From: Chloroflexota bacterium
GTDB lineage: Bacteria > Chloroflexota > Dehalococcoidia > UBA2979
Assembly (NCBI GenBank): GCA_002716405.1
Contig: PBBA01000006.1
Location: 289,683-353,682 of the forward strand
Direction: 5' to 3'
DNA length: 64,000 nucleotides
Shown here: piece by piece, positions 5,921-28,721 of the stretch
How positions within the stretch are numbered: the stretch's first letter is position 1
Layout of the letters: the number at the start of each line of letters is the position of its first letter
The notes under the pieces: model-generated
What the model saw: only the letters and a program-made list of their open reading frames with translations
What the model was told of the DNA's origin: nothing
Databases searched by the model: none
Made by a program: the position numbers and the translations under genes

Positions 5921-7576
5921 TCAAACACTTTGGCCCCAGTGAAAGAGCCAATATTCGTAAGCATCTTGTAACGCAAGCAATGAAGCACCTACAACGTCCG
6001 TAGAAGCTCCAACTGTTCGCCATAAACGTACACCATCACTGGATTCAATCAGAACACGAACAGCAGCATCAGCACCTGCACCAGAATCAATAATTCGAAC
6101 CTTATAATCTACTAAGCGAACTTGAGCTATTTCCGCATGTACTTCGGACAAAGCTTTTCGCACAGCAGCGTCTAAGGCAGATACAGGACCATTCCCATCA
6201 GCAGCTACTTGTGACAAATGATCACCTATACGCATTTTTACCATTGCCTCAGCTTGCATTTCTGCCATATACGAATCACTACTAGTATTTCGTCCATGTT
6301 CTACAATCAGAAAATCTTCAAGATTAAATGGAGATGTGTAATCATCTTGTAAACGACGCACCAGTAATTCAAAACTAGCTTCAGCTGATTCAAATTGGTA
6401 GCCACGAGCTTCTTGATTTTTTAAGTCAGAAAGAACTTGGGTAATTTGATTATCGTTTAACTGAACTTCTATACCTTGCTCACGAAGCTTCTCGACAATA
6501 TTTCTTCTACCAGACAGTTCAGAGATCAAAATTCGCTCTTTATTACCCACTAATGAAGGATCAATATGTGTATACGAGCCTGGTGATTTTGTGACTGCAG
6601 CAACATGCAACCCTGCTTTATGGGCAAATGCTCCAGCACCTACATATGGTTGCTGAGAATTAGGAGTGAAATTAGCAAGCTCTGATGCAAATAATGCAGT
6701 TTCCGTAAGTCGTTTAAGCTGCTCTTCACCAACTACATCTAAACCTAACTTTAATTTAAGATTTGGAATCACTGAAATCATATTTGCATTACCTGTGCGC
6801 TCACCCCATCCATTTAGACAGGCCTGTATTTGAGTAGCGCCTTCTTCAACCGCCGCTAAGGTACTCGCAACAGCCATATCCGTATCATTATGACAATGAA
6901 TACCAATATCACATTCAATAAGATCACGAATTTCTGTAATAATCTGCCGTATTTGTGAAGGGATAGCTCCCCCATTTGTATCACACAATGTAACAGTAGA
7001 AGCACCGGCTTTTTGTGCTGTGAGAATACAAGCTATCGCATAATCTTTATCTTCTTTATAACCATCAAAAAAATGCTCTGCATCAAAAATGACCTCTTTA
7101 CCTTTATTTTTAAGATATTGAATTGATTCAGCAATCATTAATAAATTTTCTTCTTCTGTGGTTTCTAAAACCTCTAACACTTGGCTCTTTGACGTTTTCC
7201 CTACAAGAGTAATTACTGCCGTACCAGCATCAAGAACGGCGCGAAGTGCCTCATCTTTTTCTACTTCATTGCCAGGTTTTCGTGTAGAACCAAATGCCAC
7301 GAGCACAGCACTAGCTAACGATATTTCTTTTGCTCGGTTAAAAAAATCTGCATCTTTAGGATTAGACCCTGGATACCCACCTTCAATGTAGTGAATACCC
7401 AAATCATCAAGTTTCTTTAGAATTAATAATTTGTCTTGTAAGGAAAGACTTAATCCTTCCATTCCAAGGCCATCACGCAATGTGGTGTCGTATAAGCGGA
7501 TATCAGATGCATTTGGTAAAAAAGATTTCACAGCATCAGAAGAGCCACTATCTGGGGAGTTCATATGGTCTGCCAT
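5921..7576 (-). CDS. cimA: (R)-citramalate synthase-type LeuA-family enzyme
   Basis: LYDTTLRDG, IHCHNDTDMAVASTLAA, a ~550-aa CimA-like architecture with a C-terminal regulatory domain. It heads the leuC-leuD operon. Confidence 0.78.
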   Translation of the reverse strand: MADHMNSPDSGSSDAVKSFLPNASDIRLYDTTLRDGLGMEGLSLSLQDKLLILKKLDDLGIHYIEGGYPGSNPKDADFFNRAKEISLASAVLVAFGSTRKPGNEVEKDEALRAVLDAGTAVITLVGKTSKSQVLEVLETTEEENLLMIAESIQYLKNKGKEVIFDAEHFFDGYKEDKDYAIACILTAQKAGASTVTLCDTNGGAIPSQIRQIITEIRDLIECDIGIHCHNDTDMAVASTLAAVEEGATQIQACLNGWGERTGNANMISVIPNLKLKLGLDVVGEEQLKRLTETALFASELANFTPNSQQPYVGAGAFAHKAGLHVAAVTKSPGSYTHIDPSLVGNKERILISELSGRRNIVEKLREQGIEVQLNDNQITQVLSDLKNQEARGYQFESAEASFELLVRRLQDDYTSPFNLEDFLIVEHGRNTSSDSYMAEMQAEAMVKMRIGDHLSQVAADGNGPVSALDAAVRKALSEVHAEIAQVRLVDYKVRIIDSGAGADAAVRVLIESSDGVRLWRTVGASTDVVGASLLALQDAYEYWLFHWGQSV

Positions 7577-7695
7577 TTTATCCGCTCTATTAAAAATTAA
7601 GCTTAGTTATTTTTACATAAATTAATCAAACATATAAAACAAGAATTTATTCCATTAAACTTACTACTAACGTTCAGAAAAGAAAATAAATAAAA

Positions 7696-8202
7696 ATGAC
7701 CACAATTCATAATTTAAATCCTGAAAAACGCCCCGGTGCTCGTGTACTTCTTTTTGACTGTGAAAAGAATTTGTTGCTTTTTGAAACATCTACAAATCCA
7801 TCAGATTTTAATGATGAAATTATCTGGATGACACCGGGTGGTGCTTCTGAATTCAATGAAAAACCTTCAGAGACTGCCCTAAGAGAATTATATGAAGAAA
7901 CAGGCTTTTCTCCTTCATTAAAAAAATGTGTCTGGGTACGTGATTGGATTTGGTACCACAGTGGATATAAAAAGTGGTATGACACACATGAATATTTCTA
8001 TGTTGCAGAACTGACTATAGCATCTCCAGAAATTAGACCCACAAAAAACGATGAATTGGTCACTCTAATGTCATATAAATGGATGAGTTTAGAAGAAATT
8101 TCCCAACTACCTGAAAAAACTTCTCCCTTAAAACTCAAGGAGCTCATAATCCCAATAATTAAAGGAGATTATCCAGAAAAGCCTTTATCAATCGGACAAT
8201 AA
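7696..8202 (+). CDS. Nudix hydrolase
   Basis: Nudix box GGASEFNEKPSETALRELYEETGF. Confidence 0.8.
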   Translation: MTTIHNLNPEKRPGARVLLFDCEKNLLLFETSTNPSDFNDEIIWMTPGGASEFNEKPSETALRELYEETGFSPSLKKCVWVRDWIWYHSGYKKWYDTHEYFYVAELTIASPEIRPTKNDELVTLMSYKWMSLEEISQLPEKTSPLKLKELIIPIIKGDYPEKPLSIGQ

Positions 8203-8205
8203 CCA

Positions 8206-9297
8206 TTAACTACCTAAACGAGATAAAACCTGATCAGCGATTTCGACCGTATTCAATGCATTACTATCAGAAGTTAAGTCAGCAGTTCGCAATCCATCTT
8301 CAATTACTTGGTTAACTGCATCTTCAATAGCCACTGCCTCGTCTTCCAAACCACAAGAGTGACGTAACATCATTGCGGTACATAAAATCATCGCAAGAGG
8401 ATTAGCAATATTTTTTCCAGCTATATCAGGTGCAGAACCATGAATAGGTTCGTACATACCAAAGGCTGTCCCAACTTCTCCTGGTGTAGATAAAGATGCC
8501 GATGCAAGCATGCCCATAGATCCAATCAACATTGAAGCTTCATCTGTAATTATGTCGCCAAACATATTCCCAGCTATTACAACATCAAAATCACTTGGGC
8601 GTCTTATTAGGTGCATTGTCATAGCATCAACTAGCACATCTTCATATTCTACTTCTGGAAATTCCTTTTGTACTTCATGCACAATTTCCCGCCATAAACG
8701 AGAGGACTCTAATACATTAGCCTTGTCGACATTAGTTAGTTTATTACGTCTTTGTTGAGCAAGTTTAAAACCCAGTCGTGCTACTCGTTCGACCTCATCT
8801 TCACGGTAATAAATTGTATCAACAGCAACACGGAGATTATTTTCATTCCTTCTTTCTTTTGGCTCGCCAAAGTAAGCTCCACTCGTTAGCTCTCTTATAA
8901 CCATAATGTCTGTACCTTCGAGAATTTCTGGTTTTATAGATGAGGAATCTAACAACGCAGGGATTGCTTTCACTGGACGTAAATTAGCCCACAATTGCAA
9001 CTCAGATCTTAATGCCAGTAAACCTTGTTCAGGACGAACTGGTGCTGTCGGATCATCCCATTTAGGTCCACCTACAGCACCAAACAAAATCGCATCGAAA
9101 TCTCGTGCCTCTTGGAGAGTTTGTTCACGAATAGCAACACCAAATTTGTCTATGCAATCTCCACCAACAGTATCATGTTTAAGGCGAAAAACATGTTCAA
9201 ATTGTTGTCCAATTAACTCTAAAGTCCTGACACCTTCTTTAGTAACTTCTGGGCCTATTCCATCACCAGGTAACACAAGAATATCAAAACTAGCCAT
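8206..9297 (-). CDS. leuB: 3-isopropylmalate dehydrogenase
   Basis: ILVLPGDGIGPEV start, NLRP motif, and GSAPDIAGKNIANPLAMI near the C-terminus. Confidence 0.93.
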   Translation of the reverse strand: MASFDILVLPGDGIGPEVTKEGVRTLELIGQQFEHVFRLKHDTVGGDCIDKFGVAIREQTLQEARDFDAILFGAVGGPKWDDPTAPVRPEQGLLALRSELQLWANLRPVKAIPALLDSSSIKPEILEGTDIMVIRELTSGAYFGEPKERRNENNLRVAVDTIYYREDEVERVARLGFKLAQQRRNKLTNVDKANVLESSRLWREIVHEVQKEFPEVEYEDVLVDAMTMHLIRRPSDFDVVIAGNMFGDIITDEASMLIGSMGMLASASLSTPGEVGTAFGMYEPIHGSAPDIAGKNIANPLAMILCTAMMLRHSCGLEDEAVAIEDAVNQVIEDGLRTADLTSDSNALNTVEIADQVLSRLGS

Positions 9298-9399
9298 GAA
9301 TTAACTCCTAAAATATTTTAAAACTAATATGCAATATTTATACAAATAAAACTTTTGATTTCAGGGGGAAATTTTGTAACAATTCTATACTTTAAGCAA

Positions 9400-9430
9400 G
9401 TAAATCCTCAGTCAATGACTGAGGATTTAC
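9400..9430 (-). terminator. Perfect 14-bp stem / 3-nt loop hairpin downstream of the zinc-ribbon ORF
   Basis: gtaaatcctcagtc-aat-gactgaggatttac. The T-run is stronger on the plus-strand side (ttgtcttttgtt). Confidence 0.5.
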
Positions 9431-9453
9431 TTGTCTTTTGTTATAAAGAAAAA

Positions 9454-9666
9454 TTACAAACGTAGTTTTCCATGTGATGGTTGACGACGACGCTGCTTAC
9501 CAGCTAATAAACGTTCTTCTTCCTCAATATCTTTGGGATCACAACGCTCACTGTCATGTACATAACCACACGCAATACATGTACCGAATTTTCCGTACCA
9601 ATCATCTTCAATTAACATGAGACCACGACATCTAGGACAATTCTTAGGTGGTTGACTCACTATCAT
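9454..9666 (-). CDS. Small zinc-ribbon protein with a basic C-terminal tail (70 aa), function unknown
   Basis: CPRC...(14)...CIAC four-Cys ribbon. AGGAG lies 7 nt upstream of the ATG. The ORF sits directly downstream of the c-di-AMP riboswitch. Confidence 0.6.
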   Translation of the reverse strand: MIVSQPPKNCPRCRGLMLIEDDWYGKFGTCIACGYVHDSERCDPKDIEEEERLLAGKQRRRQPSHGKLRL

Positions 9667-9715
9667 GCCTGCACTCCTATCTAGTGCTTCGGTATTTCCG
9701 AATTGGCCTGAAAAT

Positions 9716-9836
9716 TGCTTACGAGGTTAGCTGTCGGGTTCGGGTTGTCAGGACACCCGCTTTTCGAAAAAAGTTCACCCCAATTATTGGTTCCCCCGAT
9801 CTTGATTATAAATAAATAACCAAAGATTCAGCAGCT
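9716..9836 (-). promoter_or_regulatory. c-di-AMP riboswitch aptamer (ydaO/yuaA class)
   Basis: Minus-strand RNA reads UGCUGAAUC...GAUCGGGGGAACCAAUAAUUGGGGUGAAC...ACCCGAACCCGACAGCUAACCUCGUAAGCA. These match the conserved ydaO blocks as I recall them (GGGGGAnCCA, GGGGUGAAUC, CCGAAnCCGnCAGCUAACCUCGUAAGC). A closing helix UGCU/AGCA is present. Confidence 0.8.
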
Positions 9837-9871
9837 ATACAACCCAATTGGGTTGTGATTCTTTTAACAAG

Positions 9872-9899
9872 ATCATACTTATCTCTGACAACATGTCAA
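9872..9899 (-). promoter_or_regulatory. Sigma-70-like promoter for the riboswitch/zinc-ribbon transcript
   Basis: On the minus strand: TTGACA, 16 nt, TATGAT. Confidence 0.5.
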
Positions 9900-9984
9900 T
9901 AGTGTGTCCAAAAATCTTCAATTAAAAATCTCTTTAGCTTTCCTATATACAAACAACAAAGTAAATTTCATGGGAGGCGAAAAA

Positions 9985-11067
9985 GTGGCGAAGCTATCAA
10001 AAGATCAATTTTTAATTTCTGAAAATTGTGCGGGAATCTCACATATAGACAATGTAATTCAAGACAAGGTCAGAGAAAACCAAGCACAACTTACTAAACC
10101 AGAAGGTTCACTCGGTAGACTAGAAGATTTAGCAATTCATATAGCCGGTATAAAACAAAAAGCTTATCCCACGCTAATAAACAACCTTATAGTTGTTGTA
10201 GCAGCAGATCATGGTATTGCTCAGCAAGGCGTATCCGCATATCCACAAGTAGTAACAAAACAAATGATGGCAAATTTTATAAATCAAGGTGGTGCAATCA
10301 ACGTTTTAGGAAAGTCAATAGGTGCACGCGTAGTGCTTATTGATGCTGGGATTAATAATGGTCATTTTAAGGATACTGCTGTCGTTTCGCTAGGCACTGG
10401 ACATGGTACAGATGACTTTACTAATGGACCTGCCATGACAAGAAAAAATGCTGAAAAATCTGTAGCGACAGGCATTAAATTTTTTAATACAGAATTAAAA
10501 AATAATGAAATAGATATAGTTGCATGTGGCGAAATGGGAATCGGCAATACAACAGCTGCTGCTGCACTCACAGCAGCAATTACGGGAAAAAATCCAAAAA
10601 TAGTTACAGGTAGAGGGACAGGCATTGATGATTTTACTTACAAGAAAAAATTATCTGCTATCGAACAAGCACTGAAAATCAACGTTTTCGATCCAAAAGA
10701 TGCAATCGGATTACTTTCTGCTTTTGGTGGCTATGAAATTGCAGTAATGACAGGTATTTATATTGGTGCAGCGAGAAATAAGGTGCCAATACTAATTGAC
10801 GGAGTAATTTCATCAGTCTCGGCTTTAATTGCAATTATCTTGGAGCCGAAAATTAGTGAATACTTAATATCTTCACACCTCTCGCCAGAACCAGCACATC
10901 AAATCATCCTTGATCGTATGAATCTAATTCCGTTACTGGACCTTGATCTAAGATTAGGAGAGGCCACTGGTGCTGCCTTGGGATTATCATTATGTATTTC
11001 TGCATGCAAATTACTAAACGAAATGGCTACTTTTACTGACGCACAAGTAGCTGGAAAGATTACTTGA
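9985..11067 (+). CDS. cobT: Nicotinate-nucleotide--dimethylbenzimidazole phosphoribosyltransferase
   Basis: LTKPEGSLGRLEDLA, VVAADHG and GEMGIGNTT motifs. The GTG at 9985 has GGAGG 7 nt upstream. In-frame alternative starts are at 9970 (ATG) and 9904 (track), and the latter would overlap the divergent promoter. Confidence 0.85.
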   Translation: MAKLSKDQFLISENCAGISHIDNVIQDKVRENQAQLTKPEGSLGRLEDLAIHIAGIKQKAYPTLINNLIVVVAADHGIAQQGVSAYPQVVTKQMMANFINQGGAINVLGKSIGARVVLIDAGINNGHFKDTAVVSLGTGHGTDDFTNGPAMTRKNAEKSVATGIKFFNTELKNNEIDIVACGEMGIGNTTAAAALTAAITGKNPKIVTGRGTGIDDFTYKKKLSAIEQALKINVFDPKDAIGLLSAFGGYEIAVMTGIYIGAARNKVPILIDGVISSVSALIAIILEPKISEYLISSHLSPEPAHQIILDRMNLIPLLDLDLRLGEATGAALGLSLCISACKLLNEMATFTDAQVAGKIT

Positions 11068-27927: not shown

Positions 27928-28004
27928 TGGGGTGGATGATGGGATTTGAACCCACGGTCTCCTGGGCCACAACCAGGCGCTTTAACCACTAAGCTACACC
28001 CACC
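27928..28004 (-). tRNA. tRNA-His (GUG), with encoded G-1 and CCA
   Basis: G-GUGGGUG-UA-GCUU-AGUGGUUA-AAGC-G-CCUGG-UUGUGGC-CCAGG-...-GUGGG-UUCAAAU-CCCAU-CAUCCAC-C-CCA cloverleaf. Confidence 0.93.
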
Positions 28005-28624: not shown

Positions 28625-28721
28625 TGGCGGGAATGCGTGGGAGTCGAACCCACCCAGGACTACGACGTAGCCCCGCAACGGTTTTGAAGACCGCGAACAC
28701 CACCAGGCATTATCCACTCCC
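28625..28721 (-). tRNA. selC: tRNA-Sec (anticodon UCA), selC-type
   Basis: 97 nt: GGGAGUGG AU AAUGCC-UGGU-GGUGUU (6-bp D stem, 4-nt loop), GCGGU-CUUCAAA-ACCGU (UCA anticodon), a long variable arm GGGGCUAC-GUC-GUAGUCCU, GUGGG-UUCGACU-CCCAC, and an extended acceptor ending G-CCA. Confidence 0.88.

Follow-up and report, generated by a model that had tools for sequence, protein, structure and literature searches.

Locus organization

The locus lies on the minus strand of the window, which is the whole stretch of 64,000 nucleotides that was analysed. It comprised a promoter, a 5' leader with a palindromic hairpin, a c-di-AMP riboswitch aptamer, a small gene for a zinc-ribbon protein and a hairpin past the stop codon. 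The linker between aptamer and ORF was 49 nt long and held two small hairpins followed by AGGAG. The features identified were as follows.

9872..9899, minus strand: sigma-70-type promoter (-35 TTGACA at 9899..9894, 16-nt spacer, -10 TATGAT at 9877..9872)
~9865, minus strand: predicted transcription start
9839..9856, minus strand: 5'-leader hairpin ACAACCCAAUUGGGUUGU (folding energy -9.4 kcal/mol, z -2.3)
9701..9843, minus strand: c-di-AMP (ydaO/yuaA) riboswitch aptamer, RF00379, by the Rfam covariance model
9719..9716, minus strand: 3' strand of aptamer helix P1
9705..9711, minus strand: UCAGGCC box just 3' of P1 (conserved in relatives; putative role)
9688..9702, minus strand: 3' hairpin UUCGG-AAAUA-CCGAA (conserved; beyond the Rfam model)
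9671..9687, minus strand: hairpin GCACU-AGAUAGG-AGUGC (-4.3 kcal/mol, z -3.2), overlapping 2 nt of the Shine-Dalgarno (SD) sequence
9678..9674, minus strand: SD sequence AGGAG, 7 nt upstream of the ATG at 9666
9454..9666, minus strand: 70-aa Cys4 zinc-ribbon gene with C-terminal tail RQRRRQPSHGKLRL (uncharacterised family)
9396..9434, minus strand: post-ORF hairpin, 20 nt past the stop codon (-28.2 kcal/mol, z -10)
9297..8206, minus strand: leuB, 157 nt past the stop codon of the small ORF

The TTGACA-16-TATGAT promoter named in the first-pass annotation was present at 9899..9872 and agreed with the consensus at 11 of 12 positions, and the perfect palindrome of 18 nt seen behind it (9856..9839) was found to fold. 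The strong hairpin reported after the ORF was also present and very stable, but its true extent was 9434..9396 and not 9400..9430. The small zinc-ribbon ORF had been described as the sole downstream gene; it was indeed a conserved target, but as leuB follows on the same strand, it is not literally the only gene downstream.

The c-di-AMP aptamer and its association with the small gene

A scan with RF00379 produced a match at 9843..9701 (minus strand) with 84.2 bits against a gathering threshold of 38 and an E-value of 3.9e-18, extending over model positions 1-134 of 134, which upheld the earlier recognition of conserved ydaO blocks in this region. A permissive local scan gave the same score. 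In an RNAalifold analysis of 36 homologous leaders the aptamer helices and the pseudoknot were recovered, with 32 pairs of which 17 showed compensatory changes. The CGGGG/CCYCG pairing of the pseudoknot was kept among these 36 leaders, where one pair showed 14 changes from GC to GU. Judged by model score and covariation, the aptamer is a bona fide and canonical member of the c-di-AMP (ydaO) class, and ligand binding is predicted for it. A GTRHRAA-type diadenylate cyclase motif was not found in the ORFs of at least 100 aa of the 64-kb window, using a regular expression only.

The same aptamer was found beside relatives of the small gene (loci designated L and a number). All 72 of the 72 close loci tested had RF00379 immediately upstream in the same orientation, with scores of 50-93 bits, and it was upstream in five of seven evaluable divergent loci (L081, L083, L084, L087 and L088). 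One locus was truncated at a contig end. The five divergent loci with an aptamer had protein identities of 52-58% and scores of up to 104 bits. The co-occurrence of riboswitch and 70-aa homologues, for which a survey had been proposed, was therefore found throughout the close loci and in most of the divergent ones. The divergent members without an aptamer were L089, with a promoter of its own and a short leader, and L085, which had a variant tail, so that riboswitch control is widespread and not obligatory. This recurrence of the pairing in dozens of Chloroflexota genomes, seen at the level of sequence, is pointing to an undescribed output of c-di-AMP; the riboswitch is ordinary and the target is new.

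Upstream of the aptamer, the promoter sequence was identical in L001 and L002, and the leader alignment placed the -10 box of the window on a TATGCT conserved in many relatives. The conserved TTGTCACAATCACGA element sits at the transcription start. The palindrome shares its last 5 nt with the Rfam match, in the unpaired 5' flank of the latter, and the palindrome stem ACAACC/GGUUGU was retained in L001 and L002 with a variable loop. The palindrome is a shortened form of a conserved 5' inverted repeat of the relatives, aligning to CACAAUCACGAA..CGCGAUUGUG, in which 72% of cells pair with little covariation. Common to the relatives was a near-invariant TATGCT-CTTGTTGTCACAATCACGAA...CGCGATTGTGAT block 5' of P1, whose conservation lay in sequence more than in covariation. 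The 11-mer GTCACAATCAC occurred exactly once in 40 of 89 loci and always at the position of this 5' block. The block has the look of a sequence-specific site situated at the transcription start.

The zinc-ribbon protein family

The protein search produced 102 relatives, nearly all of 66-72 aa, and those carrying names were from Chloroflexi or Dehalococcoidia and annotated as 'hypothetical protein'. The protein of the window carried CPRC...CIAC and a basic tail. An alignment of 27 diverse members showed that C10, C13, C30 and C33 (CPRC...C..CG) and residues 59-70 were invariant, with the wider tail RQRRRQPSHGKLRL essentially so, and the start codon 9 codons upstream of CPRC was conserved. Across 74 loci the invariant residues used 2-5 synonymous codons each; residues 58-65 were the retrieval pattern for these 74 loci, and the unbiased search with 102 relatives showed the same invariance. 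Invariant amino acids over varying synonymous codons indicate that selection acts on the protein, and by this pattern the small ORF is a real gene under strong purifying selection. Relatives occurred in at least 415 species-level genomes. Together with the conserved start codon and length, this confirmed the conservation of the ORF on which its reading as a gene had been made to depend. The best 80 were all from Dehalococcoidia/Chloroflexota MAGs and the closest were marine MAGs, with a protein 100% identical in L001 (Station ALOHA) and 99% in L002.

No Pfam or NCBIfam model matched the 70-aa protein at threshold. The TFIIB ribbon PF08271 scored 19.2 bits against a gathering threshold of 29 and the Rpb9-type ribbon PF02150 scored 17.3 against 25.2, so that the protein is not counted as a member of either family and these are only its nearest fold type. 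The AF2 model (pLDDT 75) was confident for a three-stranded ribbon (residues 10-38), which was followed by a helix (residues 44-55) and an extended tail of low confidence. Fold and profile searches produced generic ribbons only (RPC10, Rpb9, TFIIB, topoisomerase I and Thermus ZifS), and papers found in a literature search on ZifS were all unrelated. The best sequence match had an E-value of 8e-4 (N-terminal ribbons of TFIIB and RPC10) and Foldseek E-values were at least 0.04; together with the Pfam scores below threshold, this makes the likeness to TFIIB generic. The tail peptide had no match in the PDB. A phage or defence origin was set aside, because PHROGs and PADLOC produced nothing meaningful and no relatives were found in viral contigs.

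An exhaustive profile search produced 98 cluster representatives at E<1e-10, and the best matches included proteins of 190-736 aa with ribbon and tail at the C-terminus. These long relatives retained the tail motif R-x-R-Q-P-S-H-G-K-[LI]-R-L-COOH and carried N-terminal repeats of the form NPW-x-L..LE.T.L.L...G.S..E.A. Against the PDB, the N-terminal modules gave marginal matches to LuxR/GerE and ECF sigma region-4 helix-turn-helix (HTH) domains with E-values of 2e-4 to 0.1. Profile matches included 2lvs (1.8e-4), NarL-type response regulators (2.5e-3), and DevR, ComA, GerE and ECF sigma factors (6e-3 to 1), while Pfam Sigma70_r4 and r4_2 reached only E-values of ~0.01-0.04. AF2 modelled the N-terminal module as a three-helix bundle with pLDDT 83-88. 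Foldseek on the model of a long fusion returned the zinc ribbon only and nothing for the HTH. No riboswitch was present at the two long forms checked (L090 and L091). One long form, P0165, was labelled archaeal or uncultured.

That the tail stays invariant over such distances and in such different architectures implies a partner that is universally conserved. Taken together with the type of ribbon and the fusions to HTH domains, this makes a transcription-related role, by docking to RNA polymerase or DNA, the best guess, although a tentative one that is drawn from sequence comparison. The protein could instead act outside transcription as a direct effector at low c-di-AMP, with ribbon and basic tail binding the ribosome, a K+/osmolyte transporter or a protease adaptor. 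Such a role would agree with the known regulon of c-di-AMP riboswitches, which covers K+ and amino-acid transporters together with proteins for cell-wall remodelling and osmotic shock (PMC7266159). Generic zinc ribbons also occur in the ribosomal proteins eS27, eS31 and eL43, and the tail has no detectable similarity to solved structures. However, other lineages have the module joined to HTH-like domains, the best matches of the ribbon were those of polymerase or TFIIB and no transporter neighbour was conserved; a role outside transcription is on the unlikely side.

Expression platform and polarity of the switch

In the sister clade, a terminator (long stem followed by U4-6) was found right after the aptamer in L081, L083, L087 and L088; these terminators were seen by direct folding and missed by a simple terminator scanner. 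The 3' arm of the L081 terminator repeats GGAGGC of the P1 3' strand. In the window there was no U-run terminator between aptamer and ATG. The box that follows P1 was UCAGGCC or UCAGCCC in relatives, and UCAGGCC matches in position the 5' arm (AGGCC) of the sister-clade terminator. The 3' hairpin behind it took the form CCGGC-GGGAU-GCCGG in high-GC relatives; 89% of cells were paired, with some compensatory changes, and the stem was kept with changes in L001 and L002. A long-range helix around the 3' hairpin appeared to covary by eye but was rejected with a mean z of -0.23 against shuffles.

The first-pass annotation had read the GCACU/AGUGC hairpin as sequestering part of the SD and as a sign of translational control. 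The hairpin does exist at 9687..9671, and its folding was stronger than that of shuffles by the z-score listed above, but it is weak, only 2 of the 5 AGGAG bases are paired and the GCAC/GUGC core recurred in L001-L005 only. In its full form, the reading would have this hairpin, possibly together with a pairing of GCC (9707..9705) to GGC (9669..9667), occlude SD and start codon in the c-di-AMP-bound state while leaving transcription unaffected. The absence of a U-run terminator is in line with it, and the 53-nt segment past P1 folded as a three-way junction with GGC placed beside the AUG (-13.5 kcal/mol, z -2.6). Complementarity between the post-P1 box and the start region was strong in some clades (L026, L064-L077 and L080). 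However, the family-wide tests showed no consistent signal. Accessibility of the SD did not differ consistently between modelled apo and holo states across 66-76 loci, and pairing of the box to the SD or start region was overall not above shuffles (mean z -0.6, with p<0.05 in 14% of loci). The sister-clade loci use terminators instead. The claim of control by SD occlusion was not supported, and occlusion as the sole mechanism is on the unlikely side. No alternative pairing linking P1 to the SD or start codon was demonstrated in the window's clade. Control in this clade may act on translation initiation, or through termination that is U-tract-less or Rho-dependent.

The terminators of the sister clade follow the standard ligand-induced design, from which OFF polarity is derived by homology. 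For the window, OFF polarity is on this analysis moderately likely, being transferred from the sister clade and not read from the window. With the opposite polarity in the window's clade, binding of c-di-AMP would free the ribosome-binding site (RBS) and the protein would be made at high c-di-AMP. The 3' strand of the pseudoknot, CCUCG, is complementary to SDs of the GGAG type and could serve as an anti-SD in the unfolded aptamer, and SD accessibility was slightly higher in the holo state in many loci (mean +0.04). Yet this effect was tiny and inconsistent, CCCCG pseudoknot strands do not match the SDs of their own loci and the terminator design of the sister clade is typical of OFF switches. 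To our knowledge, all characterised c-di-AMP riboswitches are OFF switches. Repression by c-di-AMP via a riboswitch has been described for nlpC of Corynebacterium glutamicum (PMC9960051) and for kdpFABC of Bacillus thuringiensis (PMC6488665). An ON switch is therefore improbable.

Boundaries of the regulated unit

Genes around the unit varied among the loci. cobT and cobU were usually divergent and upstream of it, while cimA and leuB were convergent in many loci, absent in others and co-oriented only in the closest relatives of the window, where the leuB arrangement of the window was also found in L001-L003. This variation of the flanking genes identifies the aptamer and the small gene as the conserved unit. 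A cobalamin riboswitch was absent from the cobT leader of the window even at E-values of up to 1; unlike the window, 22 of 72 close relatives' loci had one.

In 78 of 80 loci the stop codon was followed within ~60 nt by a stable hairpin of unrelated sequence; most of these hairpins had no U-tail. In the window, the hairpin at 9434..9396 failed the criterion for an intrinsic terminator, as the minus strand has no U-run (tail CUUAAAGUAU) and a T-run is seen only on the plus strand, but L002 showed compensatory changes in it. The post-ORF hairpin is probably a transcript-end or terminator-like element, and its recurrence supports control of essentially the small gene alone, as far as sequence can indicate.

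Read-through past this hairpin into leuB, and perhaps beyond, would instead place leucine biosynthesis under c-di-AMP. leuB is co-oriented at the short distance listed above, no consensus promoter was found at 9453..9298 (minus strand), the hairpin lacks a minus-strand U-run and L001-L003 share the arrangement. Against this, cimA and leuB were convergent or absent in most loci, the hairpin has a stability of ~-28 kcal/mol with equivalents closing the gene in 78 of 80 loci, and compensatory changes maintain it. We also know of no link between c-di-AMP and leucine synthesis, and such an operon is quite improbable. That the ORF is non-functional or a leader peptide, with the riboswitch an orphan or serving another target, could be suggested by its small size and its lack of annotation beyond 'hypothetical protein', but is effectively refuted by the synonymous codon variation beneath an invariant Cys4 and 14-residue tail, by the conserved start codon and length, and by the occurrence of the family across at least 415 species, with larger proteins also carrying it as a domain.

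Proposed mechanism

Overall, the locus is probably a c-di-AMP riboswitch leader of an essentially monocistronic zinc-ribbon gene, acting as an OFF switch on a small trans-acting factor. Binding of c-di-AMP would stabilise P1 and the pseudoknot and lower expression, and with an OFF switch the protein would be made when c-di-AMP is low. In the sister clade, the intrinsic terminator, with its 3' arm repeating the 3' strand of P1, would carry out the switching. In the clade of the window, this terminator would be replaced by the short conserved hairpin and local structure at the RBS. The protein itself would be a small trans-acting factor that passes the c-di-AMP signal on to other genes. Its ribbon and invariant tail would dock on a nucleic-acid machine that is universally conserved, the leading candidate partners being RNA polymerase or DNA.

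A more specific version would be a two-step cascade of Dehalococcoidia and related Chloroflexota, in which the riboswitch-gated, TFIIB-ribbon-like protein docks on RNA polymerase or another universal machine by its RQRRRQPSHGKLRL-COOH end and reprograms transcription when c-di-AMP falls. Taken as a whole this cascade is speculative and rather unlikely. If true, the ribbon and tail that other phyla carry in fusion with HTH domains would represent an unrecognised family of bacterial polymerase-docking modules.

Comparison with known systems

Compared with ydaO (kimA) and yuaA (ktrA) of Bacillus subtilis, the aptamer belongs to the same RF00379 class, has the same helices and pseudoknot and likewise lies in the 5' leader of a co-oriented gene. 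The sister-clade loci resemble the Bacillus examples also in using a terminator as expression platform, whereas the clade of the window has no U-run terminator and its aptamer is flanked by additional conserved hairpins on both the 5' and the 3' side. Like nlpC of C. glutamicum, rpfA of Streptomyces and Mycobacterium is a cell-wall hydrolase gene behind a c-di-AMP riboswitch. As with rpfA, nlpC of C. glutamicum and kdpFABC of B. thuringiensis, the aptamer here stands before one gene or operon, in a setting that is non-Firmicute or non-canonical. Those targets, however, are enzymes or transporters tied to the envelope or to K+ homeostasis, whereas the product here is without catalytic or membrane features. 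In Vibrio cholerae, the c-di-GMP-I riboswitch Vc2 controls the regulator TfoY. The concept of a cyclic-dinucleotide riboswitch that governs a regulatory protein in a two-step cascade is similar here, with the regulatory role of the zinc-ribbon protein being putative, but the two systems differ in ligand and in aptamer class, and their protein families are unrelated.

Known outputs of c-di-AMP riboswitches are K+/osmolyte transporters and cell-wall enzymes (PMC7266159), and the target here is a single small protein; set against ydaO and yuaA, it is a soluble zinc-ribbon protein of 70 aa and not a K+/osmolyte transporter. The suggestion of a small zinc-ribbon protein as a new type of riboswitch target held, as neither the protein nor its pairing with the riboswitch was found in Pfam, NCBIfam, the PDB or the searchable literature, where a 'hypothetical protein' entry in the original gene-association tables is possible. 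A literature search for c-di-AMP riboswitches with zinc ribbons, Chloroflexi or Dehalococcoidia produced nothing relevant. c-di-AMP signalling is essentially unstudied in Chloroflexota, a large and environmentally abundant lineage. The value of the locus lies in the target and the consistency of the association and not in the riboswitch itself, and it yields a cheaply testable hypothesis of a riboswitch-gated small regulator.

The target carries an extraordinarily conserved C-terminal peptide and has no annotation, Pfam family or solved relative, and it gives a handle on an uncharacterised module that recurs in HTH proteins of other phyla. Its three-stranded Cys4 fold is like that of the TFIIB, RPC10 and Rpb9 ribbons (PF08271 and PF02150) and of ZifS from Thermus thermophilus (PDB 8yoz), but the helix and invariant RQRRRQPSHGKLRL peptide at the C-terminus set it apart from all of these.

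Conserved block at the start of the leader

Among the numbered loci of relatives encoding homologues of the small gene (the 70-aa Cys4 zinc-ribbon ORF), loci L006-L079 shared the almost invariant block TATGCT-CTTGTTGTCACAATCACGAA..N7..CGCGATTGTGAT, which took in the -10 box together with the initial ~45 nt of the c-di-AMP riboswitch leader. The 11-mer GTCACAATCAC occurred as a single copy in 40 of 89 loci and was always positioned within this block. The block was located as follows:

~210-250 nt 5' of the small ORF, L006-L079 (example L025:2781-2791), leader-start block
window 9871..9850 (-), degenerate version of the leader-start block

Its conservation was at the sequence level and not by covariation, which suggests that the block may be a candidate protein-binding site, possibly serving autoregulation.

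Neighbouring genes and local rearrangement

The cimA-leuB pair was inverted relative to the small gene between lineages (window 5921..9297 vs L045-L054 and L063-L077), sharing its orientation in the window and in L001-L003 and converging with it elsewhere. This inversion among lineages indicates that the surroundings of a fixed riboswitch-plus-gene cassette have been rearranged locally more than once. Divergent from the c-di-AMP leader, a cobalamin riboswitch (RF00174) preceded cobT/cobU in 22 of 72 relatives' loci, and it was not found in the cobT leader of the window (9900-10000, +) even at E up to 1. Examples upstream of the c-di-AMP leader were:

L059:2531-2682 (-), cobalamin riboswitch RF00174
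L038:2493-2654 (-), cobalamin riboswitch RF00174

In the sister clade, where the riboswitches are of the terminator type, a co-oriented gene of ~97 aa with an ABM domain (PF03992) lay downstream of the small gene, and the two may form a two-gene riboswitch-controlled unit there. This arrangement was seen at:

L081:2788-3081
L083:2872-3168
L084:1682-1978
L087:2851-3141

The stable hairpin 3' of the small gene's stop codon (window 9396..9434) scored as an intrinsic terminator on the plus strand only, where a T-run comes next. No plus-strand gene ended near this hairpin; the NUDIX gene ended at 8202 and minus-strand leuB lay between the two.

Riboswitch-less and longer homologues

At L085:2274-2707, the homologue P0090, with the tail KSRWRQPSHGKLRL, was a variant without the riboswitch. 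Directly upstream of it lay a further 69-aa ORF as well as a Fic-domain gene, and downstream an ATP-dependent DNA ligase, an arrangement which may represent a tandem paralogue whose context differs. Proteins of 190-736 aa ended in the same zinc ribbon and an RQRRRQPSHGK[LI]RL tail, and had at least one, and up to several, HTH-like modules of the 'NPW..LE.T.L' type at the N-terminus:

P0114, P0116, P0121, P0125, P0144, P0165, P0168, P0171, P0188, P0199 (loci L090, L091), long ribbon-plus-tail proteins

The riboswitch was absent from the two long-form loci checked (L090 and L091). The long-form P0165 was labelled as Nanoarchaeia or uncultured archaeon, yet was adjoined by ruvC and yebC.

tRNA genes

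Two tRNA genes were located ~600 nt apart in the window:

28629..28721 (-), tRNA-Sec (RF01852, 72.6 bits)
27931..28003 (-), second tRNA

Together these imply that this marine Dehalococcoidia-like genome makes use of selenocysteine.
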